Assembly (NCBI RefSeq): GCF_024223415.1
Contig: NZ_CP100500.1
Reading direction: 5' to 3' (one strand)
Length of the DNA stretch: 64,000 nt
Source: Escherichia coli
GTDB taxonomy: Bacteria > Pseudomonadota > Gammaproteobacteria > Enterobacterales > Enterobacteriaceae
The notes beneath the pieces are model-generated. The model had not been told where the DNA came from. It did no database searches and saw only the letters and a program-made list of their open reading frames with translations. The first letter of the stretch is position 1; each line of letters begins with the position of its first letter. Below are positions 6,544-60,885 of the stretch, piece after piece. The position numbers and the translations under genes were made by a program.

Positions 6544-6692
6544 CATTTTATCTGCCTGTACGGCAGTGAACATGGTGGGCGGGTGGAGTATGTTACCAGT
6601 GAATTTCTAAGCTGCCTGTACGGCAGTGAACGTTTGCTGCAACCGCTAGCCAAGACGGTAGGTTTTTCTAAGCTGCCTGTACGGCAGTGAAC
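6544..6692 (-). CRISPR. Orphan type I-F CRISPR mini-array: 3 repeats, 2 spacers, no cas genes in the window
   Basis: Minus-strand repeat GTTCACTGCCGTACAGGCAGCTTAGAAA (the E. coli I-F repeat) at 6604-6631 and 6665-6692 plus a degenerate terminal copy at 6544-6571; spacers of 32-33 nt. Confidence 0.85.
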
Positions 6693-6903: not shown

Positions 6904-9180
6904 TTAATGCGCTGCTTCCGCCTTGTGCTTTTGTGCACTCTGAAATCCGTAAGTCAGCTCATTTTTCTCTTTATCCAGCGCGACGGTGACCTGACCGCCG
7001 TCCACCAGCGAACCAAACAGCAGTTCGTTGGCAAGCGGTTTTTTCAGGTTGTCCTGGATGACACGCGCCATCGGACGAGCGCCCATTGCCCGGTCGTAAC
7101 CTTTCTCGGCCAGCCAGTTACGCGCTTCCTGGCTCACTTCCAGAGAAACACCTTTCTGATCCAGCTGAACCTGCAACTCGACGATGAATTTATCCACCAC
7201 CTGATGGATCACGTCAGTTGACAGATGATCGAACCAGATAATGTTGTCGAGACGGTTACGGAATTCCGGTGTAAAGATCTTCTTGATCTCTTCCATCGCA
7301 TCGGTGCTGTTATCCTGGTGGATAAGACCAATGGATTTGCGCTCAGTTTCCCGTACCCCGGCGTTAGTGGTCATCACCAGTACCACGTTACGGAAGTCCG
7401 CTTTGCGTCCGTTGTTATCGGTCAGCGTACCGTTGTCCATCACCTGCAACAGAATATTGAACACGTCCGGATGCGCTTTCTCGATTTCGTCCAGCAGCAG
7501 CACCGCATGTGGATGCTTGATGACCGCATCAGTCAGCAAACCGCCCTGATCAAAACCAACGTATCCCGGAGGCGCACCAATCAGACGGCTGACGGTATGG
7601 CGTTCCATATACTCGGACATATCAAAGCGCAGAAGCTCAATGCCCAAAGCTTTCGAAAGCTGTACCGTCACCTCTGTTTTCCCGACCCCGGTAGGACCGG
7701 CAAACAGGAACGAACCGACCGGTTTATGTTCGTGACCTAAACCTGCACGCGCCATCTTAATGGCTTCAGTCAGCGCCTCAATGGCTTTATCCTGACCGAA
7801 GACCAGCATTTTCAGGCGATCGCCGAGGTTTTTCAGGGTATCGCGGTCACTCTGAGAAACACTCTTCTCTGGAATGCGTGCAATACGGGCCACCACGGAC
7901 TCAATATCCGCCACATTAACGGTTTTCTTGCGTTTGCTTACCGGCATCAGGCGTGCGCGAGCGCCCGCTTCGTCGATAACATCAATCGCTTTATCCGGCA
8001 GATGACGATCGTTAATGTATTTCACCGCCAGCTCTACCGCCGCACGCACCGCTTTTGCGGTATAACGCACGTCGTGGTGCGCTTCATACTTCGGTTTCAG
8101 GCCATTGATGATTTGAACAGTTTCTTCGATCGACGGTTCAGTAATATCAATTTTCTGGAAGCGACGCGCCAGAGCACGGTCTTTCTCGAAAATGTTGCTG
8201 AACTCCTGATAGGTTGTCGAACCAATTACGCGAATTTTACCGCTGGAGAGCAACGGTTTGATTAGGTTAGCCGCATCGACCTGACCACCAGACGCTGCAC
8301 CCGCACCGATAATGGTGTGGATCTCATCAATAAACAGGATGCTGTTAGTGTCCTGCTCCAGCTGCTTGAGCAACGCTTTAAAACGTTTTTCAAAGTCGCC
8401 GCGATATTTTGTGCCCGCTAACAGAGAACCGATATCGAGAGAGTAAATCGTACAGTCAGCCATCACTTCCGGCACATCGCCCTGAACAATTCGCCAGGCA
8501 AGACCTTCTGCAATCGCGGTTTTACCGACACCAGATTCCCCCACTAGCAGCGGGTTGTTTTTACGGCGACGGCAGAGAACCTGAATAGCACGCTCCAGCT
8601 CCTTCTCACGACCAATCAGTGGGTCGATTCCGCCCACGCGCGCAAGCTGATTCAGGTTCGTCGTGAAATTCTCCATACGTTCCTCCCCACCAGCTTGTTC
8701 TTCGCTGTTTGGCTGGCTGCCAGGATCAGAAGACTGTGTCGGCTCGTCTTTACGCGTGCCATGAGAGATAAAGTTCACCACATCGAGACGGCTGACTTCA
8801 TGTTTACGCAACAGATATGCCGCCTGCGACTCCTGTTCGCTAAAGATAGCGACCAGAACGTTTGCACCGGTAACCTCATTGCGACCGGAGGACTGGACAT
8901 GGAAGACCGCACGTTGCAGTACACGCTGAAAACTCAGCGTCGGCTGTGTGTCGCGCTCCTCTTCACTGGCAGGCAGAACGGGTGTGGTTTGTTCAATAAA
9001 GGCTTCCAGTTCCTGACGGAGCGCAACCAAATCCACAGAACACGCTTCCAGCGCCTCCCGGGCAGATGGGTTACTGAGCAGCGCCAGTAACAAGTGCTCG
9101 ACGGTCATAAACTCATGACGGTGCTCGCGCGCTCTGGCGAAAGCCATATTTAAACTGAGTTCCAGTTCTTGATTGAGCAT
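6904..9180 (-). CDS. clpA: ATP-dependent Clp protease ATP-binding subunit ClpA
   Basis: Product begins [35 protein letters not shown] and carries two AAA+ Walker A motifs ([16 protein letters not shown]); start trimmed from the track ORF. Confidence 0.95.
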
Positions 9181-9905: not shown

Positions 9906-10517
9906 GTGTCGGGGCTATTCTGCTGTTGCCGTGCTGGTGGATATTCTCCGGTATGCGGCTCCCCATATCGGCATCAGGCCCACCAGCGTGAAGCGTTTTT
10001 CATTTTTCGCGGGTATAAAAAATCGATGGGGCGGGCAGTCCTGAAGACGTCAGGGTACAGAGATTTGACCCGCCCCTCCCTGTGCATGAGCACAATAAGT
10101 AACCGAAGGCGGAATTCCGCCCTCGGTACTTACATATGAGAAACGATATTTCTTCCACCGATACCCTTTATTTGGGTATCGCGAGTAAGCCCCAAAATCT
10201 GGGTGTTACTCTTACTACCCAAACTACGGGTAGTTTCCGTAGTTTCATGGTCGAGTTGCAAATCTGCAACTCACCCACCAGCCAGCGCAATGTCGCATTA
10301 TCAGTCCTCAGATGTGAGGGATGTAGCCAGCTTTTCCCCCAGTGGGGATTATCCAGTTACCGACGGTTTAACCGCCTGTACCAGCACAACGAAAGAATTT
10401 GCGGGTAGCTTTAAACTACTCACAACATCCCATCTTACAGGCCGTGCCTTTCTAACTTTTTACAATGCAATAAGTCAGGTAACGCTATGCGTTCCACCGT
10501 GTACACCGCGCCAGTAA

Positions 10518-10542
10518 AACCCCCGGATTCGTGGTTTTCCTG
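10518..10542 (+). repeat. 25-bp direct repeat copy 2
   Basis: See copy 1 at 9881-9905. Confidence 0.5.
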
Positions 10543-10554
10543 AATATCAGGAAT

Positions 10555-10929
10555 CTACCGCCGCAACCGTTCCGGCTTCTTCCACTGATAAGTGTTTTTC
10601 GCGCTCTCCCTCCGTTGTTGAGAACGGCGACGGTATGCCAGCAACTCAAGGACTCTGGTTCGTATGTTGCGCATATCCACGCCGTTAAGCTCAATACCAT
10701 CACGGCGCATCACCTCAGCAACAACACACGCGTAATTTTCGGCTATCACGCTGTCCGGCTGCGTGGCCTCCTGTTCGCCAGCCTGCTGGCTGATTCCGGT
10801 AATACTGCGGATTATCCCGAGCGCTTCGGTCTCGGTCATGGTCATGGCCTCCATAGTGATGGCGGGTCCTCCTTGTGGGGTGCCCTGCCACGGGGCGGGA
10901 GCATCGCGGAAAAAGGCTAGTTTTTGCAT
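10555..10929 (-). CDS. Hypothetical protein of the satellite packaging module
   Basis: 124-aa ORF downstream of the Nu1-like gene; no recognisable domain; start uncertain. Confidence 0.45.
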   Translation of the reverse strand: MQKLAFFRDAPAPWQGTPQGGPAITMEAMTMTETEALGIIRSITGISQQAGEQEATQPDSVIAENYACVVAEVMRRDGIELNGVDMRNIRTRVLELLAYRRRSQQRRESAKNTYQWKKPERLRR

Positions 10930-11090
10930 TTTTATTCGTTATCACCACCAATGCAATATATTGATATGACTTGATGTTTTATTTTTCGGTGTCGATTTCG
11001 ATTGTTTTTTGTTCATCACTGACGCATAACGCCCACCAGCGCAACGCTGAAAGCCAGTCAGTAAACTGGCTTCGGTCATTGTGCACTACG

Positions 11091-11645
11091 TTACTTGTCT
11101 TTATCCGGCTGAAACTTATCAGGCACATTTCCGGTAGTTTCCATCAGATAATCGGACAGCATTCGCGGGATGTTTTCATCAAGTTTTGTGCATGCGTTAC
11201 AGGCTCTGACAACTTCTTTTTTCAGGCCATCCAGCATGGCGGGGGTCATCTGTGGGAAGCTCCTTTGCATAGTAAGCGGGAGGCTGTCCATGATTGATGA
11301 AATCTGACTCGCCAGTTTTGAAAGCGCGTACATGCAAAACTCTGTATCAATCACGTCACCGCGATCGCGCTCGTTTTTAAGTTCCTGCGCCTCCGCCTGT
11401 GCTGTCAGTAATCTGATCCTGACTCGTAAAAGTTCATCATCGTCAATCTCGCCTTTGTCGTTTGTAATCTGGCTGATTGCATTGTTAACCCGATTATCTA
11501 TTACACTGGCGACATCATAAAACGTCTCACGGCCCTTACGCTCGACGGGAATCACTCCCCACTTATCGAACGCAGTGGCGCTTACTCGGCAGCTTTTCGC
11601 CATGTTTTTTTTATTCATCAGGTGCGATTTCATCAATACCCCCAC
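11091..11645 (-). CDS. Terminase small subunit, lambda Nu1-like
   Basis: LLRVRIRLLTAQAEAQELKNERDRGDVIDTEFCMYALSKLASQISSIMDSLPLTMQRSFPQM...LDENIPRMLSDYL aligns with lambda Nu1; probable true start at the MNKKNMAK Met near 11618. Confidence 0.8.
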   Translation of the reverse strand: MGVLMKSHLMNKKNMAKSCRVSATAFDKWGVIPVERKGRETFYDVASVIDNRVNNAISQITNDKGEIDDDELLRVRIRLLTAQAEAQELKNERDRGDVIDTEFCMYALSKLASQISSIMDSLPLTMQRSFPQMTPAMLDGLKKEVVRACNACTKLDENIPRMLSDYLMETTGNVPDKFQPDKDK

Positions 11646-11727
11646 TTAATTAATGCTTCAGGTTGGTGTGTTGGTGTTATCTTTCCATTTTTATTCATAG
11701 AGATAGAGCGAACAACAAAACCACCAC

Positions 11728-11790
11728 CAACCCGAAAAGGCTCATAAATAGCGAAAATCCGCAAGGTCGACGCCCCGTAACGGGTCCACA
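11728..11790 (-). other. Lambda-type cos site (cosN/cosB)
   Basis: Minus strand reads ACGGGGCGTCGACCTTGCGGATTTTCGCTATTTATGAGCCTTTTCGGG, matching the lambda cos sequence as I recall it (ACGGGGCGGCGACCTCGCGGGTTTTCGCTATTTATGAAAATTTTCCGG); about 120 bp upstream of the Nu1-like gene. Confidence 0.8.
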
Positions 11791-11805
11791 TGCCGGAAAG
11801 GACCC

Positions 11806-11835
11806 ATAAAAAATAAAGCCGGACTACTCCGGCTT
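11806..11835 (-). terminator. Rho-independent terminator after the FinO/ProQ-like gene
   Basis: Stem AGCCGGA / TCCGGCT followed on the minus strand by a T-rich run. Confidence 0.5.
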
Positions 11836-11858
11836 CGTCTCTTCATGTGGTCAGGGTT

Positions 11859-12539
11859 TTATGCTTTCCGTACGCCCGAGGAACTGGCATTTTTCAGAAT
11901 AATATTATGCCCTGCTGGTGGCTTACCGTTATGCTTATTTTCTGCCTTCATGTTTCTGCGCTCCTGCTGTTTTTTCTTCATCTCATCCAGTCGCTTCCCC
12001 GCGTTCAACTGGTGCTCCTGTGTCACCTCCCCGCACGGATGGCCTTTCAGGTCGTAACGCACGCCACCAGCCATCAGGGAACGGTAATATCGCACTGAAC
12101 TGACATAATACGCCAGCGTTGCGCGAAGCGCTCCCTGACCTAATGAAATACCTCTCGCAGTAATATCCTCCATCAGGTCATCAAATATGCCAACCTTAAG
12201 CGGTCTGGGCGATTCCTGGCTGAAAAGTTCAGGCCAGAGCGCGGCAAGGCGTTCAACGCGTCTGATATTTTTTTTCCGGCTCTTTTCTGATTTGCGTTTT
12301 GCTGCCGTCTTCTGTTGTGTTTTCTGCTCGCGGCTCTGCTTTTGCGCTGGTGTGGTTTTATCCGGCTGTTCAGCCTCCTGCGTCTTTTTCTGCGGTGTGC
12401 CGTATATGCCTTTTGGTTTTCGGTTAATGGTCAGCTTTGTCATGTTCTCCCCCTTTGTGCTGTTCCACCAGCGGCATCTGCTACCCCGTGTCGCTCCCGC
12501 TGGTGTCGTGTTTCCCCGCCTGTTAATAACCGTCATCAT
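11859..12539 (-). CDS. FinO/ProQ-domain RNA-binding protein with a Lys/Gln-rich N-terminal region
   Basis: RPLKVGIFDDLMEDITARGISLGQGALRATLAYYVSSVRYYRSLMAGGVRYDLKGHPCGEVTQEHQ aligns with the E. coli ProQ N-terminal domain (RPLKIGIFQDL...RLYTSSWRYL...RVDLDGNPCGEL); start uncertain. Confidence 0.75.
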   Translation of the reverse strand: MMTVINRRGNTTPAGATRGSRCRWWNSTKGENMTKLTINRKPKGIYGTPQKKTQEAEQPDKTTPAQKQSREQKTQQKTAAKRKSEKSRKKNIRRVERLAALWPELFSQESPRPLKVGIFDDLMEDITARGISLGQGALRATLAYYVSSVRYYRSLMAGGVRYDLKGHPCGEVTQEHQLNAGKRLDEMKKKQQERRNMKAENKHNGKPPAGHNIILKNASSSGVRKA

Positions 12540-12843
12540 TTACGTTATCAGGGTAATCACGCCATATTTCATCAGTAAGCGACGGTAGCCCCATCTGTTG
12601 TATTGTCCTGTCTGCGGCCCTTCTGACTGCGTGAACATCATAACGGTTTTCAGGTATCGGGCGCTTTGCCTTCCTGATACATTCCCTTGCTCTCATTGCC
12701 GCAAGTTCTCTGTGCCTGTCTTCCTGAAGAGTAATCATCACATCCTGCCACCTTCTGGCAGCCCGTCGCCACAGTCCCCTGCTCTCGAGTTCTTCTGCTG
12801 TCGCGTCGCTTATTGTCCGGTTCTTCGGTGTGCTGTTGTTCAT
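12523..12843 (-). CDS. PerC-family transcriptional activator-like protein
   Basis: N-terminal EELESRGLWRRAARRWQDVM resembles the PerC/Pch signature (recalled, not searched). Confidence 0.55.
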   Translation of the reverse strand: MNNSTPKNRTISDATAEELESRGLWRRAARRWQDVMITLQEDRHRELAAMRARECIRKAKRPIPENRYDVHAVRRAADRTIQQMGLPSLTDEIWRDYPDNVNDDGY

Positions 12844-12860
12844 GTTGCTCCCCGCCTGAT

Positions 12861-13271
12861 TCAGAAGGGTATATCATCTCCGTAGGGGTCATCGCCTCCC
12901 GCTGGTGGCTTATTCCCCTGTGCGCCTGTGGTTTTGCGTGTTTTTCCGCCCGGTCGCACTGTCCGCGCACTGATTACGCTGTCTGCGATAACCTGCCAGC
13001 CCTGCCGCGTTTCCCCGTTCTGTCCGGTCCACTGGCTCACCTGCATGTTACCCGCCACGCTCAGGAGTTCACCCTTGCGGTGCTTTGCCAGTGCTTCGGC
13101 CTGTCTGCCAAACGCCAGCACAGATAACCACATCGTCGCCGTTCCGTCATCTGCCTGGCTGCACGGAAGGGGGACCGCCATACTCGCCATCGCCATTTGT
13201 GTCCCCTTGCTGGTGGTCTTTAACTGCGGGTCAGCCACCAGCCGCCCGTAAGCCGCTATCTGTGCTGTCAT
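12861..13271 (-). CDS. ssb: Single-stranded DNA-binding protein (SSB)
   Basis: OB-fold-like N-terminus (IAAYGRLVADPQLKTTSKGTQMAMASMAV), Gly-rich linker and the acidic C-terminal tail DDIPF. Confidence 0.8.
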   Translation of the reverse strand: MTAQIAAYGRLVADPQLKTTSKGTQMAMASMAVPLPCSQADDGTATMWLSVLAFGRQAEALAKHRKGELLSVAGNMQVSQWTGQNGETRQGWQVIADSVISARTVRPGGKTRKTTGAQGNKPPAGGDDPYGDDIPF

Positions 13272-13525
13272 GCTGTATGCTCTCCGGTTTTAACGTTGAT
13301 GGTTGTCACCTGTTCCGCTCCGGCAATCTCCCGTTCTGTCAGCGTGGCAAAATTTGCCGCTACCGTTGTCATGAATGCGCTTATCAGTGCGGGATGTGCT
13401 TTCGCGTATCCTTCTCCCGCGCTGCGGTCGATAATTTTTATCGCCACCCTCAGCCAGTGCTCTGTAAGGTCAATGGCGCGGTTATGTGGTTTCTTCTGAT
13501 TATTAAGTTTTCCTGATGTGTGCAT
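13268..13525 (-). CDS. Hypothetical protein
   Basis: 85-aa ORF overlapping the ssb start by 4 nt (translational coupling). Confidence 0.5.
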   Translation of the reverse strand: MHTSGKLNNQKKPHNRAIDLTEHWLRVAIKIIDRSAGEGYAKAHPALISAFMTTVAANFATLTEREIAGAEQVTTINVKTGEHTA

Positions 13526-13570
13526 TTTTATTTTTACCCCCTCGTTTAAAAAGTTTTGTGTTGTGGTGCA

Positions 13571-13806
13571 CCTCCTCTACCTCTCTACACAATCATCTTT
13601 CAGGTCAGTAATGGCGCGGCTTTCAGCGGGGTAGAGGGCTTTTTTGGCCCTCTACCTGCCATCTACCACCCCCTCACAAATGCCCTGAATTATGGTAGAG
13701 GGTGTAGAGGGCTTTTAAGTACCTTCTACCTGCCATCTACCCAATCTATCAACATGAAATATATGTAATTATTTTCTTAAGGTAGAAGGGGTAGAGGGCT
13801 TTTGTC
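13571..13806. repeat. Iteron cluster; candidate satellite replication origin
   Basis: At least three copies of GGTAGAGGGCTTTT and repeated CTACCTGCCATCTACC, including the palindrome GGTAGAGGGC-TTTTTTG-GCCCTCTACC, immediately 3' of the primase gene. Confidence 0.55.
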
Positions 13807-15560: not shown

Positions 15561-15856
15561 TTTTTACCCCTGAATCCGTTAATCATGGTTTTCATCTTCT
15601 GAATATTGGCGCGTGCTTTCTCCCTGCTGGTGGGCACGTTACGCGGTACGGCCTGCACAAGAGAAAAATCACGCACAAACTGATAAACAGGCATCACGCA
15701 ATCATATTCGTAACCTTCATGGCGGTAGGTGATGCGCCGTTCTGCCACGCCTTTAATCGTTACCGTACCGCCGTAGTTATCACGGAAAATATCGCCGGGA
15801 CGGATTTCAGGCCGAGTGAGGCCGCTGGCAGTAAAGCCAGAATTTTTCTTTTTCAT
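15557..15856 (-). CDS. Hypothetical protein (99 aa), coupled to the primase gene
   Basis: Stop overlaps the primase start (ATGA). Confidence 0.6.
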   Translation of the reverse strand: MKKKNSGFTASGLTRPEIRPGDIFRDNYGGTVTIKGVAERRITYRHEGYEYDCVMPVYQFVRDFSLVQAVPRNVPTSREKARANIQKMKTMINGFRGKK

Positions 15857-15886
15857 GGTTTTATTTTCCTGTCAGTGATTCCGGCT

Positions 15887-16060
15887 TTATTCCGGCGCGA
15901 ATACAGGCTTCAGAAAAAAAGCCAGAGAACCAATAACCTCATTATTTCTAAGGCGGCATTGCGATTTCACTTTCCCTTTATCCAGGAATATCAAAACGCG
16001 CCCCGTATAATCAGATGGCACATTAAGCACTACAGGTAAGTGCGCTTCATGATTATTCAT
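15887..16060 (-). CDS. Hypothetical small protein (57 aa)
   Basis: Start trimmed to the ATG preceded by AGGAGGTGG; N-terminus MNNHEAHLPVVLNV; start overlaps the stop of the upstream gene. Confidence 0.5.
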   Translation of the reverse strand: MNNHEAHLPVVLNVPSDYTGRVLIFLDKGKVKSQCRLRNNEVIGSLAFFLKPVFAPE

Positions 16061-16340
16061 GGCTAACCACCTCCTGGAATTTTCTTCTGTAACGCGCCTC
16101 TGCCACATATTCAGCATAGTCCGACGCAATATTGAGAATATCGCTACCCGTTCCTGAATGTTCGGCGGTTTCCAGTAAAAAACATGCAGCTTTTACCATG
16201 TCAGCAACACATAACAGCGCAATATCTGTATCTTCCGGTGTGCCATCAAATTCCTGTTTCAGGGCATTAAAACGATCATCACGCATAACCCCATATTCAC
16301 AATCAGCAATCAGGATGGCTTTGGCCTCATTCAGTGCCAT
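16053..16340 (-). CDS. Hypothetical protein; N-terminal extent uncertain (may start at 16496)
   Basis: Only the C-terminal 95-147 codons of the 662-aa track ORF look protein-like (MALNEAKAILIADCEYGVMRDDRFNALKQEFDGTPEDTDIALLCVADMVKAACFLLETAEHS). Confidence 0.4.
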   Translation of the reverse strand: MALNEAKAILIADCEYGVMRDDRFNALKQEFDGTPEDTDIALLCVADMVKAACFLLETAEHSGTGSDILNIASDYAEYVAEARYRRKFQEVVSHE

Positions 16341-16494
16341 ATCAGCGGTAAGCTGTGCGTAGGCCAGCAAATGCGGGATTATTGCCCCTGTATATTCCGG
16401 CTCTCTGATAATGTGGTCGGATGTGTTGATTAAATAGTTTGTGCGAAAAATGCACCTGTAACCATCAGTTAACAACGGATATACAGGGGGGACC

Positions 16495-16665
16495 ATGAAT
16501 GATAAGGGGGTGCCGTTTGATGTGCTCCTGCAAAAGCTGAATGCTGCACGCGCCGCAAGGGAACGTGAGCGCATGAGTAATAACCCTGTCCCTCCTGAAT
16601 TACCTCGCCCTGAACATTTTCCGCTTGAGGATTTCATCAGGGGACGAATCCGAACAAAACGATAA
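16495..16665 (+). CDS. Small protein (56 aa), paralog of the 16909 ORF
   Basis: ATG preceded by a G-rich Shine-Dalgarno; shares the PxxFPLE(D/R)FI motif with ORF 16909..17103; below the track length cutoff. Confidence 0.35.
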   Translation: MNDKGVPFDVLLQKLNAARAARERERMSNNPVPPELPRPEHFPLEDFIRGRIRTKR

Positions 16666-16908
16666 CCGCCGCCGTGATATGAGGCATCACGACGCAATGC
16701 ATTACAGGTGAGCACCATGAACAAATCCATATTATCCCCCACAGTTCTGGACGTAAACACAAAGCAGCGACAGATATTATTACGCGCCGTCATTAAAGCC
16801 AGACACGAGAAATTAAACCAAATCTTAAAATAAGATACGCCGCTACCGCTGTAAGTCTTCATCAGAAACAGAAAACGCCAGAGCAGATGAGCACGGAGGT
16901 AACTCTTT

Positions 16909-17103
16909 ATGAAAATAAACGAATCAGGGGAAATTACCGAAGCCAGCGTGGTACGCCAGCGGAGGCGGGAACGACGGGTACGGCCCCCCGCGCCATCCGA
17001 TAATTTCCCGCTTGAGCGCTTCATCAGTGAACGGCCCCGCATACGCTGGAACGGCACAACCCCATACCCCGAGGAGAGACAGACAAAAAACAAACAGCGA
17101 TGA
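16909..17103 (+). CDS. Small protein (64 aa), paralog of the 16495 ORF
   Basis: GGAGGT Shine-Dalgarno 9 nt upstream; C-terminal FPLERFISERPRIR. Confidence 0.4.
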   Translation: MKINESGEITEASVVRQRRRERRVRPPAPSDNFPLERFISERPRIRWNGTTPYPEERQTKNKQR

Positions 17104-17382
17104 TGAAATCTGGAGGCCAATACCATCACCCAGCCAGTCGGGGATTGCTGGCGGGCTTCCTGTTCGCTGGTGGCCCCGATGGTAATAACGCGTGGTTGTG
17201 CTGTGCTCAGGGCGATAAAACGCCAGATGTATTTATTCAGGTTGTGCGGGTCCCGCCCTTGCGGGTGTGTGGTATGATTTAACATAGCTACCTCGATACG
17301 CTTTCTATCGTTGGTGGTTAGAAGCCCCGTTACTGCTCCAACAGTGCGGGGTTTCGTCGTTTCTGCACCTTTCATCAACAAG

Positions 17383-17434
17383 GTGTTGAACACCAATTTA
17401 AGCCTAGGTGTTAAACACGCCAAGTGTTGAACAC
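17383..17434 (+). promoter_or_regulatory. Three palindromic operator-like sites GTGTT(G/A)AACAC
   Basis: Sites at 17383-17393, 17408-17418 and 17424-17434, about 50 bp upstream of the small gene at 17485. Confidence 0.55.
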
Positions 17435-17484
17435 TTATTTTTTTTCCTGCATACTGCATTTGTTTTTTGTAAGGGGTACACAAC

Positions 17485-17664
17485 ATGGCGACAAAAGCAG
17501 TAAACGCAAAATCACAAACAGTTGCGGCAAGGGTTCCGCATGAAGTTATGAACAATGTTGAGGCGGTAAAAATGCCTGGTGAAAGTACAGGGCAGTTTGT
17601 AACAGCAGCATTAAAGCGAGAAGTTGAATACCGCCAGCGCCGCAAGGCCAAAGAATCAGAATAA
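17485..17664 (+). CDS. Small DNA-binding protein, ribbon-helix-helix-like (59 aa)
   Basis: AAGGGG Shine-Dalgarno; N-terminal strand-like TVAARVPHEVMNNVEAV then a basic helix; downstream of the palindromic operators. Confidence 0.45.
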   Translation: MATKAVNAKSQTVAARVPHEVMNNVEAVKMPGESTGQFVTAALKREVEYRQRRKAKESE

Positions 17665-17712
17665 TCACTATCAGCGCCGTGGTGTGAGGTACTGCGGCGC
17701 ATTGTTTTAAAG

Positions 17713-17913
17713 GTGATAATTATGAATAACCAGGAACTACAAAATAAAGCATTATCAATTATCATGCGCCAGCGTGAGAAAACCCGCAGGGAAATAAATA
17801 AGGCATTAACCCGTACTGAAAATCTTAAAGTTCCTGATAAGTTCGCCCTTGATCCTTTTGTCGAGAAATACCCTCGGCGCTTAAAAGCAAACAAAAACCG
17901 CCCACCTGGCTGA
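17713..17913 (+). CDS. Hypothetical small protein (66 aa)
   Basis: AGGTGA Shine-Dalgarno; basic helical sequence. Confidence 0.4.
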   Translation: MIIMNNQELQNKALSIIMRQREKTRREINKALTRTENLKVPDKFALDPFVEKYPRRLKANKNRPPG

Positions 17914-18051
17914 CAATCCACCAGCAAGCCACCACACTGGACACATTGCCCACCAGCCAGCAAATCGCTATGATGTTCGGGCTTATGTTTAGTGTTTTCC
18001 CATTGGCGACCGCCCCCGGTCGCCTTTGTTTTATGTGTCATATACTCCCCT

Positions 18052-18348
18052 TTACGCTGCCTTGCCTGAATTAATGCGATCCCGGCTTTTAACCCATTCC
18101 ATAACCTCGGACAGCAGCCAACCTACAGAACGCCCACCAAGATTACGGCGAGACGGAAAGCTCCCTTTTTTCTCCAGTTCGTAGCGTGTAGTGCGACACA
18201 CTCCAGTTAACTTACGACATTCATCCTCACGGATTACGCGATCTTCATTTATTTCACGCATACAAAAACCTACATAAAAATTACGTATATAAACTTTTCT
18301 CTTAGCTGTAGATATATGAGATCGGATATTACTTAGATTCTTTTTCAC
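18052..18348 (-). CDS. AlpA-family transcriptional regulator
   Basis: C-terminal TRYELEKKGSFPSRRNLGGRSVGWLLSEVMEWV matches the AlpA pattern; true start may be an internal Met. Confidence 0.7.
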   Translation of the reverse strand: MKKNLSNIRSHISTAKRKVYIRNFYVGFCMREINEDRVIREDECRKLTGVCRTTRYELEKKGSFPSRRNLGGRSVGWLLSEVMEWVKSRDRINSGKAA

Positions 18349-18680
18349 CTCTTAAATTAAAAACACAACCATGCTAAAGGCTTTGTTCGCTAAGGTTCGT
18401 AGAAGCTCGTTAGTGTTTAAAATCGTGTCACGAGTTTTTAAGCGACGCAACAAAAAATGTCGTCATTTGGCATGTCACCTGAATTACCTCATTAAAAACA
18501 AATAGATAAACCATCAGATGTTGGAACAATCAAGAAACAGAGAATAAGAACTCAGAAGAAGACATTTCAATTTTTTTCGATAGTTGACACATATAAAGAG
18601 AAGATATTTGCAGATATTCCCCGATATTCTAAGATCTATTCACGGCTGTAATCTCTTAAAGAAAAAACAGCCGTAATTTG

Positions 18681-19919
18681 TCAAGAATTTTGGGGGTAAA
18701 TTCGCGGGGTCATAACAACGATTTTTTCATCATTGTTCTGGAGAAGCTCGAGACGGTCTACCCATAGATTAAGAGCGTCACGCTTTGCATCGAGATAACG
18801 GGAGTGGTTATAGACGCGTTGCATTCCTGGCATCTGGTGGGCAGTAAGCTGTTCAACAATATGCGGATCCACGCCTAAATCGTTCAGCATGGTTGTAAAT
18901 GTGTGCCGGATGTCGTGCAACGACCAGGGGGCTTGATTAATGCGTCTGTGTGCCGTTCTTCCGTACTCTGCTACGGATGATTGCCCTTTCAGTTCTCCAA
19001 GCAATAAGCCCGTGTGCCTGTTCTGCTCCACCAGCTTCATGACGAACGGCAAGATCGCTTCCGGTATTGGCCTGAATATTGCTACCTTCGTTTTGCTGTG
19101 TTCTTTCGGCACAGTCCAGAGCATTTCTTTAAAATCCCATTCCCGAACCTCGGAGCGTCTTAGCTCAGTGGTACGGCATCCGAAGACAATCAGAAGGCGA
19201 ATTAAAGCGCTGTAGTACGGCGGGAAAATTTTTTCATCCAGTGCGCGGAGTAGCTCGCCAAGCTCCTTGTTTGTTAGCACTCGCTCGCTTATTTCTGCTT
19301 TTTTTCCCACATCACCTACGACCATATCATCAAGAACGTTACTGACGGCGTAGCGACGTTTACGGCAGTACTTAAGCGCCTGTTTGCATACCTGCAACAA
19401 AAAGCCGGCTGATACCGGATTACGCTTAGCAAGCTGGTCAAAACAGGCCAGCCAGTGGCGTAGCTCGCATTTATCCAGCGGCATAGCACCAATCTGGCTG
19501 ATTATGTGCTTATTGATACGGCTTTTCAGTGATTCGTGGTCAGTGCGCTTTTCCTTCGCATACGACTCAAGCCAGTAAGTGAGCGCGTCCTTAACCGTCA
19601 CGGGGGCTAACGCTTCCTGCACTGTGTGATTAAGCTCATGGCGTGGATTTTTCCCCTCCGCCAGCCAGGCGCGACACTGTGCCGCTTTTTCCCTGGCTGC
19701 TTTCAGGCTCAGATCGGGATAGTTGCCCAGTCTCAGGCGTTCCGGTGATACCTGCCTGCCAGTTCCGGCCCTGTAAGTGAAATACCAGGTTAACAGGCCG
19801 CTGGTGGAATGTCTTACGCTAAGATTGCCACCGTCATTAAAAAAGGCGTTTTTTGTGGTTGGTGATCCGCTTAATTTTCGTAAAAGAGTGTCGCTAAGTC
19901 TATGAATTGCGCTGCTCAT
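18681..19919 (-). CDS. int: Tyrosine integrase
   Basis: 412 aa; catalytic region LHDIRHTFTTMLNDLGVDPHIVEQLTAHQMPGMQRVYNHSRY. Confidence 0.9.
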   Translation of the reverse strand: MSSAIHRLSDTLLRKLSGSPTTKNAFFNDGGNLSVRHSTSGLLTWYFTYRAGTGRQVSPERLRLGNYPDLSLKAAREKAAQCRAWLAEGKNPRHELNHTVQEALAPVTVKDALTYWLESYAKEKRTDHESLKSRINKHIISQIGAMPLDKCELRHWLACFDQLAKRNPVSAGFLLQVCKQALKYCRKRRYAVSNVLDDMVVGDVGKKAEISERVLTNKELGELLRALDEKIFPPYYSALIRLLIVFGCRTTELRRSEVREWDFKEMLWTVPKEHSKTKVAIFRPIPEAILPFVMKLVEQNRHTGLLLGELKGQSSVAEYGRTAHRRINQAPWSLHDIRHTFTTMLNDLGVDPHIVEQLTAHQMPGMQRVYNHSRYLDAKRDALNLWVDRLELLQNNDEKIVVMTPRIYPQNS

Positions 19920-44514: not shown

Positions 44515-44640
44515 GCTGCGTACATTCGCCGGGGGGGTTTGTAGGTCTGATAAGACGCGCCAGCGTCGCATCAGACATCAGCACGGTGCCTGTGCCGGAT
44601 GCGGCGTGGACGCCTTATCCGGCCTACATAGTGCATAAAT
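44515..44640. repeat. REP/BIME palindromic elements
   Basis: GCCTGATGCGACGCTGGCGCGTCTTATCAGGCCTAC-type and GCCGGATGCGGCGTGGACGCCTTATCCGGCCTACA-type units between artM and artJ. Confidence 0.65.
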
Positions 44641-60553: not shown

Positions 60554-60885
60554 AACTGAAGTTGCCCTGAAAATGAAATTTTTTTGCACAACCGCAGAAC
60601 TTTTCCGCAGGGCATCAGTCTTAATTAGTGCCACTGCTTTTCTTTGATGTCCCCATTTTGTGGAGCCCATCAACCCCGCCATTTCGGTTCAAGGTTGGTG
60701 GGTTTTTTGTTATCTAAATCCCCAAAATCTCCATTCTCTCCCCTGTCCAAAGCCTTATCTGACTGTCCTCTCTTCCAGAAAATCATTCTTTTTCGTACAA
60801 AGAACAAATAGTTATTGAGAAGCTTATTTAAAAACCTGAACAAAATCGGTAATATTCCTGGCTTTGCAATACACAGATTTTTTAT

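Follow-up and report, generated by a model that had tools for sequence, protein, structure and literature searches.

Small antisense genes, predicted palindromic operators and a long eta-like frame in the probable regulatory zone of a phage-inducible chromosomal island in Escherichia coli

Organisation of the locus

We analysed positions 16495–17913 of a 64-kb stretch of the Escherichia coli chromosome (contig NZ_CP100500.1, assembly GCF_024223415.1). The whole stretch of 64,000 nucleotides is referred to as the window, with + and − for its given and complementary strands. Five small open reading frames (ORFs) lie here on the plus strand of a satellite of ~10 kb that is inserted between cspD and clpS. 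An original prediction treated these ORFs as an accessory module in the variable slot of the element. The analysis below makes it probable that the interval is the regulatory (immunity, 'Bro') zone of a Gram-negative phage-inducible chromosomal island (PICI) of the EcCICFT073 type, and not accessory cargo.

Gene identities were taken from the calls of the Prokaryotic Genome Annotation Pipeline (PGAP) in an annotated genome, L001, that is 99.9% identical over the interval studied. From right to left between cspD and clpS, these comprised a tyrosine integrase (int), a helix-turn-helix regulator of the AlpA type (alpA), two small plus-strand genes ('hypothetical' and 'YlcI/YnfO family'), a minus-strand gene of 410 amino acids (aa; 'host cell division inhibitor Icd-like protein'), and genes for DUF4222, primase, SSB, PerC, ProQ/FinO and the small terminase (terS). 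Both this annotation and the comparison with EcCICFT073 revealed the arrangement that defines Gram-negative PICIs, with int and alpA co-oriented and followed by the primase and then by packaging/interference genes. The ~10 kb size, the specific chromosomal site and the lack of lysis and tail genes are likewise those of this class. Related contigs are present in IMG/VR, and one relative, vB_KppS-Ant, was deposited as an 'induced prophage' and encodes a capsid.

All five plus-strand ORFs were found as originally described, antisense to the int-alpA-pri operon: ORF1 (16495–16665), ORF2 (16708/16717–16833), ORF3 (16909–17103), ORF4 (17485–17664) and ORF5 (17713/17722–17913). Each has a purine-rich Shine–Dalgarno sequence (SD) 5–9 nt 5′ of its start, and all five share one plus frame (coordinate mod 3 = 1). 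The PxxFPLE(D/R)FI motif reported for two paralogues is indeed common to ORF1 and ORF3 (HFPLEDFI/NFPLERFI), and the ORF5 family also carries it throughout, the version in ORF5 being KFALDPFV.

YlcI and its predicted operators

ORF4 (17485–17664, +) encodes a protein of 59 aa. The original prediction recognised none of the small proteins; this one, however, matched the NCBIfam family NF041551 (YlcI/YnfO) with 59.7 bits against a cutoff of 30 (E = 2e-16), as well as phrog_949 (E = 6.5e-22). Homologues of YlcI occur across the Enterobacterales. YlcI is a real protein, for which we propose the role of immunity repressor. Its suspected ribbon-helix-helix (RHH) character was supported by structure modelling, which gave a confident RHH fold (β-α-α with an N-terminal strand) whose best structural matches were RHH antitoxins. 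In the model, the protein ends ~10 residues past helix 2 and carries no C-terminal toxin-binding extension.

Upstream of ylcI, the three reported GTGTT(G/A)AACAC palindromes were located within 52 bp, at 17383–17393 (GTGTTGAACAC, operator 1), 17408–17418 (GTGTTAAACAC, operator 2) and 17424–17434 (GTGTTGAACAC, operator 3). These are the only exact copies in the window. Allowing at most one mismatch, 8 strand-matches were detected across the 64 kb against 1.9 ± 1.5 expected, a number reached in 0/100 shuffles. The palindromes and the protein are tied together by co-variation. The YlcI family is near-invariant apart from residues 11–15 of the N-terminal strand, and these variable residues co-vary with the core of the upstream repeat in eight allele types, with the repeats at equivalent positions. 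The β-strand QTVAARV occurs with GTGTTGAACAC (50 loci, 28 distinct upstream sequences), KKLEARV with GTGTCAGCCAC, KKIDVRV with GTGTCAGACAC and QALKARV, the version of EcCICFT073, with GTGTGGCCCAC; the upstream repeats of three more distant YlcI alleles are unrelated. Because the β-strand residues change together with the repeats, YlcI very probably acts as an operator-binding repressor of the leftward operon, with the alleles forming allele-specific immunity types.

The operators coincide with two predicted promoters. A leftward early promoter, the analogue of PLE in phage P4, is predicted at 17395–17423 (−), with a −35 element TTGGCG (17418–17423), a 17-nt spacer and a −10 element TAAATT (17395–17400). 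Operator 2 lies inside its spacer and operator 1 over its start site. This −35/−10 pair matches the consensus and is kept at fixed offsets from the ylcI ATG (−67..−62 and −90..−85) in five of the operator types examined. A ylcI promoter is predicted at 17427–17455 (+), with its −35 element TTGAAC within operator 3, a 17-nt spacer and a −10 element CATACT (17450–17455).

A long open frame on the minus strand

A feature absent from the original prediction covers the whole region on the minus strand, namely an eta-like open frame of 662 codons (16053–18041, −). It begins with an ATG at 18041, preceded by AAGGGGAG as a good SD, 10 nt past the stop of the alpA gene directly upstream (18052–18261, −; called by PGAP in L001 as an HTH regulator/excisionase-family gene and matching phrog_2790, 'excisionase and transcriptional regulator'). 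From there it extends antisense to ORF5, ylcI, the operators, the leader of icd, icd itself and the segment with ORF1–3, and enters a gene of the phrog_2512 family. Between 18041 and 16053 this frame contains 0 stops, versus 19–44 in each of the other five frames, and its third codon positions coincide with those of all five plus-strand ORFs.

Nested within this frame is an icd/kil-like gene (17100–17285, −) with its own SD (GAGGT) and ATG (17285). Its Icd-like domain (17106–17231) matched NF033153 (E = 1e-13) and phrog_6196 (E = 7e-35). The last ~6 codons and the stop of this gene have been replaced: similarity to relatives ends at ~17101, and the frame continues past the domain with no stop. 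It thereby reaches the phrog_2512-family gene (16053–16496, −; phrog_2512, 2.7e-49, profile positions 31–153), whose usual N-terminus and SD are gone and which is joined in frame to icd by the antisense strand of ORF1–3. In relatives, this gene begins MCNN... and has a strong SD overlapping the icd stop. Outside icd and the phrog_2512 gene, the long frame had no significant match in NCBIfam or PHROGs, and Pfam returned nothing for the 410-aa and 662-aa minus ORFs.

The openness of this frame could be a by-product of plus-strand coding and chance, with the frame untranslated beyond icd and regulation exerted only by YlcI, with or without an RNA. Coinciding third codon positions do lower the number of antisense stops, leaving each plus ORF a 23–82% chance of having none, and the middle of the frame combines an odd composition with a lack of homologues. 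However, simulations that preserved the plus-strand proteins while drawing their codons anew and shuffling the non-coding stretches (2000 runs) did not reproduce the observed pattern. Upstream of icd (17286–18041), 8.9 stops were expected and 0/2000 runs were stop-free; in the ORF1–3 segment (16497–17099), 4.35 were expected and none was observed (P = 0.008). With the plus proteins fixed, the joint probability for the window was <1/2000, and the non-coding operator and leader region is open too. Furthermore, the corresponding frame is open for 171–689 codons in 58 distinct relatives, usually from just past alpA to the icd stop, despite diverged or unrelated underlying sequence and differing operator types. 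It usually begins 10–58 nt past the alpA stop with an SD (10–11 nt in many relatives), and the same open-frame pattern was found in the capsid-encoding vB_KppS-Ant. A +1 indel in one variant (L006) shifts the frame, which still passes the start of the next gene, and P4 provides a tested precedent. Considering both sides, we find an origin of the long frame as a mere by-product unlikely.

It is far less credible still that the minus ORF, as a large Bro/Icd-type protein, is the only real gene and that the plus ORFs, including ylcI, are its spurious shadows. Gene callers often annotate the long ORF alone, as in vB_KppS-Ant and in the 410-aa call of PGAP, and ORF3 is absent from protein databases. 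Yet YlcI belongs to a curated family, is confidently modelled as RHH-folded and co-varies with the upstream repeats. Purifying selection on ylcI is stronger in the plus frame, where the synonymous/non-synonymous ratio is 3.4 versus 2.1 in the antisense frame and the second codon position is the least variable. The gene also keeps its SD, ATG and terminator structure, and similarity among ORF5-family members is seen in the plus frame only.

Annotation of the locus was inconsistent among the records L001–L004 and L064. The same minus frame appears as a 410-aa (17285→16053 in L001) or 134-aa 'Icd-like protein', an 'ash family' pseudogene, a 'BRO-N' pseudogene or a 325-aa hypothetical, and ylcI is sometimes unannotated. 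A further plus-strand ORF of 60 codons lies antisense to icd (17100–17282), in a frame other than that of the five ORFs, and is open in L004 (75 codons). It had no family match in NCBIfam or PHROGs and showed no other sign of being a gene.

A candidate structured RNA opposite the icd start

The original prediction placed a putative terminator at about 17328–17365. The hairpin is real and has a T-rich tail, and it constitutes the 3′ hairpin of a candidate structured plus-strand RNA (second stem-loop, 17321–17355). Because variants of it are found in about 60 loci, including relatives without ORF1–3, it is not specifically the terminator of ORF1–3, although it would still stop any plus-strand transcript arriving from there. 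The candidate cis-antisense small RNA (17270–17366, +) would be preceded by an extended −10 element TGgTATGAT (17270–17278) and run from ~17284 to ~17363, giving ~80 nt with two stem-loops and a U-tail. A TAnnnT motif with TG before it is conserved ~8 nt upstream of the structure. Such an RNA would be complementary to the icd SD and start codon, or to those of whichever gene is first in the leftward operon.

Folding favoured the plus strand. For 17284–17366, the minimum free energy reached −35.2 kcal/mol (z = −5.2) when the plus strand was folded, compared with −21.9 kcal/mol (z = −1.8) for the minus strand, and the respective consensus folds gave −26.4 versus −11.1. The plus consensus, drawn from eleven diverse relatives, comprised 24 pairs, with 92.8% of cells paired versus 38–48% in slid controls. 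Ten of these pairs showed compensatory changes, a number reached in 0/500 shuffles, and many G·U pairs of the plus fold correspond to A·C mismatches on the opposite strand. Rfam detected no C4, isrK or other family in this region, either in the scan of the whole window at the gathering threshold or in that of 15800–18700 at E ≤ 10. We predict, with moderate confidence, an ~80-nt antisense RNA opposite the icd ribosome-binding site (RBS).

On the minus strand, a C-rich, G-poor tract of the leader, CUUCUAACCACCAAC, is almost unchanged across all operator types and lies just past the hairpin (17286–17320, −); the conserved C-rich, G-poor tract CUUCUAACCACC also lies in this leader. Rho might load at the C-rich tract, or the tract may be no more than the complementary strand of stem-loop 1 in the plus-strand RNA.

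The ORF5 family and the rare ORF1–3 segment

ORF5 (17722–17913, +; 63 aa; 'hypothetical protein' in PGAP) belongs to a small family encoded just downstream of ylcI, which comprised 21 clusters among 1.84 billion representative proteins. In most relatives its homologues start 43–58 nt past the ylcI stop, always in the ylcI frame. The N-terminus is variable and is followed by a conserved core, FA(PCAF)ALE/DxF(L/V). The ORF5 model consists of one long helix, a linker and a short motif helix, which is too simple for a fold search, and selection signals favour the plus frame only slightly. A hairpin between the ylcI and ORF5 cistrons (17674–17700, +) is kept in most relatives, and an intrinsic terminator (18005–18034, +; 8 pairs, 7 of them G-C, then a T-run) closes the ylcI-ORF5 unit before alpA. 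In some ylcI alleles the terminator comes directly next and there is no ORF5.

Just beyond ORF5, a 37-nt block (CCACCAGCAAGCCACCACACTGGACACATTGCCCACC..., 17918–17954, +) is 89–92% conserved in L005 and L007, although the flanking ylcI/operator regions are unrelated. In alleles without ORF5 this block directly follows the ylcI stop. Lying close to where the long frame starts, it may serve as a regulatory site. A partial direct repeat was also observed at 17900/17948.

Two further members of this family lie in the ORF1–3 segment. ORF1 (56 aa, predicted protein P0090) and ORF3 (64 aa) are ORF5-family paralogues, each with an SD and an ATG. They scored 10.8 and 10.7 bits, respectively, over the motif region against a plus-frame hidden Markov model (HMM) of the family built without them. 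ORF2 (16717–16833, 38 aa) resembles only the N-terminal half of the family (2.9 bits, not significant) and is probably a fragment. An HMM of the antisense-frame translations found nothing in this segment. The ORF1/ORF2 junction (16670–16724) is a diverged copy of the ylcI/ORF5 junction, including its hairpin. ORF3 had no homologue in a collection of 5.8 billion proteins, and the minus-frame translation of the segment matched only its own 100%-identical cluster.

The segment spans ~0.7 kb (~16400–17100) and was found in only 9 of 5,426 complete E. coli genomes. The nine carriers of 16440–17110 are all at least 99% identical. The segment is 100% identical in elements with three different ylcI/operator types, and L005 and L007 agree at 100% over 16040–17129. 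It replaces the last codons and stop of icd, plus the SD and first ~35 codons of the phrog_2512 gene, and in doing so it produces the in-frame icd-phrog_2512 fusion, the 410-aa protein of PGAP.

This part of the original picture, a variable slot, thus applies to ~16400–17100 alone. DNA with ORF4, ORF5 and the operators was present in 1,437 of the 5,426 genomes and in EcCICFT073, and these features are the conserved regulatory core of the satellite class and not cargo. Nevertheless, the five ORFs could together form one independent accessory module, toxin–antitoxin (TA)-like or anti-phage, to which the minus frame is irrelevant. All five have an SD and share one frame, the best structural matches of YlcI are RHH antitoxins, ORF5 sits directly 3′ of ylcI in a toxin-like position, and the rare segment moves between immunity backgrounds. 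Searches of the small proteins in Pfam, NCBIfam, PHROGs and PADLOC, however, gave no toxin or defence signature. ORF5, ORF1 and ORF3 matched nothing in these collections, including any type II TA toxin, and the only PADLOC hit (ORF5 against ZorE; E = 0.008, 13.5 bits) was at chance level. A single long helix is what the ORF5 model shows, several ylcI allele types dispense with ORF5, and the YlcI model has no toxin-binding extension. In addition, the operators lie on the predicted promoter of the replication operon. An independent cargo module is consequently improbable.

Several observations weigh against the regulatory-zone interpretation, or against parts of it. The promoter scan, at its own threshold, listed neither the predicted leftward promoter nor the predicted ylcI promoter, and found no plus-strand promoter upstream of ORF1; promoters and RNA ends are predicted at the level of consensus matches. 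In its middle, the long frame is protein-unlike in composition and has no homologues, and for these reasons its product may be degraded or irrelevant. Since the two strands share their third codon positions, substitution patterns discriminate between them weakly, with a clear result for ylcI and a marginal one for ORF5. ORF1–3 are invariant among carriers. The segment could also be open on the minus strand simply by having been copied from another eta-antisense region. Finally, in a variant (L006/L011; IMG/VR UViG_2537561979), an extra C in the C-run at the equivalent of 16589 frameshifts ORF1. The same insertion shifts the long minus frame, which then ends ~28 nt past the phrog_2512 ATG. Either genuine variation or a sequencing error in the homopolymer may account for the additional C. 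We regard the production of ORF1 or ORF3 proteins as a tentative prediction, somewhat doubtful on present evidence.

Comparison with known systems

In P4, eta starts at the alpA homologue, to which it is translationally coupled, holds a constitutive promoter and the CI RNA, and ends in Kil (PMC10111431). Translation of eta prevents termination, so that late transcripts read through and escape immunity (PMC10111431). The same paper names the 'Bro zone' of PICIs (PMC10111431). The locus described here resembles the P4 left operon (vis, eta/kil, the internal promoter PLE, CI RNA and the Rho-dependent terminator timm) in that a long ORF runs from the end of an AlpA-family gene through an internal promoter, predicted in the present case, and an immunity region. 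In both, a Kil/Icd-like gene matching NF033153 is nested at the end of that ORF, and replication genes follow downstream. NF033153 matched P4 eta in its C-terminal Kil part (1.4e-20) and the 428-aa ORF of EcCICFT073 at its end (3e-18). BLASTP of the window Icd against P4 Eta was not significant, and the relationship was visible only via the NF033153 profile.

The two systems differ in their immunity determinants. P4 immunity is conferred by same-strand RNAs, whereas the locus here has an antisense protein-coding unit (ylcI, in some cases followed by ORF5), operators for a protein and a candidate RNA in antisense. The frame is also longer (662 codons versus ~200 in P4) and is fused to the next gene. 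As a control, Rfam identified C4 (74.9 bits) and isrK (60.8 bits) in P4 eta, and neither was detected in the window region (even at E ≤ 10) or in EcCICFT073. This satellite class therefore keeps the eta/kil scaffold without the CI RNA, and in the window the ylcI unit and operators occupy the position that the CI RNA has in P4. In the P4 RefSeq record, the eta/kil frame (8168–8584) still goes by the name 'cI gene product / transcriptional repressor', with a length of 137 aa. This label is probably the source of the 'transcriptional repressor' tag on phrog_6196 and phrog_1743, both of which match the Icd-like gene of the window.

EcCICFT073 and related Gram-negative PICIs (Fillol-Salom 2018; 'Bro zone', Mageeney et al. 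2023) have the same gene order and switch region. In EcCICFT073, alpA is followed by a 428-aa frame with antisense ORF5-like and YlcI genes, then by Icd-like and primase genes. The element in the window differs by its extra, rare ORF1–3 segment. Bro-N was only a marginal match in the long frame of EcCICFT073 (E = 0.19). In a tblastn search of phage genomes, YlcI and Icd each matched only vB_KppS-Ant. The searchable literature describes the repressor of Gram-negative PICIs as unknown, and we found no description there of YlcI, of its operators or of the antisense RNA, although subscription-only papers may have been missed.

In the immI region of P22, the RHH repressors Mnt and Arc control an antirepressor operon from overlapping divergent promoters. 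No sequence relationship between immI and the window was detectable, and the window differs in having three operators with allele-specific cores and a repressor gene inside an antisense frame. The RHH antitoxins of type II systems (Rv0298, CopA, TacA, ParD, MazE) differ from YlcI as modelled, which is without a toxin-binding tail; there is no recognisable toxin, and some allele types do without ORF5. The closest known counterparts are the P4 eta/kil-CI region and, functionally, RHH-controlled immI-type regions. The present locus departs from them in that a probable protein repressor, with operators specific to each allele type, replaces the CI RNA, in that it has a candidate cis-antisense RNA, and in that these genes are embedded antisense in a long frame.

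Other features of the window

The distal genes of the island (small terminase, ProQ/FinO-family, PerC-family and SSB) lie at 10500–13600 (−). Beyond clpA, two CRISPR-DR4 repeats, 61 nt apart, occur at 6604–6692 (−), which we interpret as the short remnant array of type I-F that E. coli is known to carry here. Rfam also identified the small RNA RybB (60633–60711, +; 104 bits) and naRNA4/CssrE (44544–44624, −; 78.5 bits), both ordinary chromosomal features. No tRNA genes were found in the window.

Proposed mechanism and significance

We propose that the system runs like the P4 left operon, with a protein repressor instead of the CI RNA. During quiescence, YlcI would occupy the three operators, which overlap both the leftward promoter of icd/kil and the replication genes and the promoter of ylcI itself. 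The conserved ~80-nt plus-strand RNA would pair with the icd RBS and block translation of icd, and then downstream expression by polarity. Upon induction by a helper phage, by analogy with P4 eta, transcripts would begin upstream of alpA. Ribosomes finishing alpA could then re-initiate 10 nt further on and translate the 662-codon frame through the switch. Such read-through translation would override both controls and prevent Rho-dependent termination, and selection would hold the long frame open without acting on its amino-acid sequence. ORF5 would be a small helical protein co-transcribed with ylcI, and the rare 0.7-kb segment with the ORF1–3 paralogues would have displaced the stop codon of icd together with the beginning of the following gene while the minus frame stayed open.

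The analysis yields a candidate repressor with predicted operators, specificity residues and natural allele/operator pairs, which is present in EcCICFT073, and the question of how these islands are repressed becomes directly testable. The P4 eta/kil read-through design would extend to this PICI family, where the CI RNA gives way to a protein repressor together with a candidate antisense RNA. The locus also exposes a systematic annotation conflict, in which a pipeline reports one or the other, the long frame or the small genes antisense to it. Because both strands share wobble positions, it is a strong natural test case for opposite-strand overlapping genes.

A more speculative extension, which we consider rather unlikely to hold in full, is that YlcI is the missing master repressor of the main Gram-negative PICI family and that its operator types are immunity groups. 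Helper phages, or the island itself, might then act through proteins of the ORF5 family, with three extra copies here, to lift repression or to neutralise Icd/Kil. The whole switch, in which three operators and two promoters accompany two protein genes and one antisense RNA, would be embedded antisense in a translated frame of >1 kb selected only for its openness. If so, this region would be among the longest conserved bidirectionally translated stretches in bacteria.

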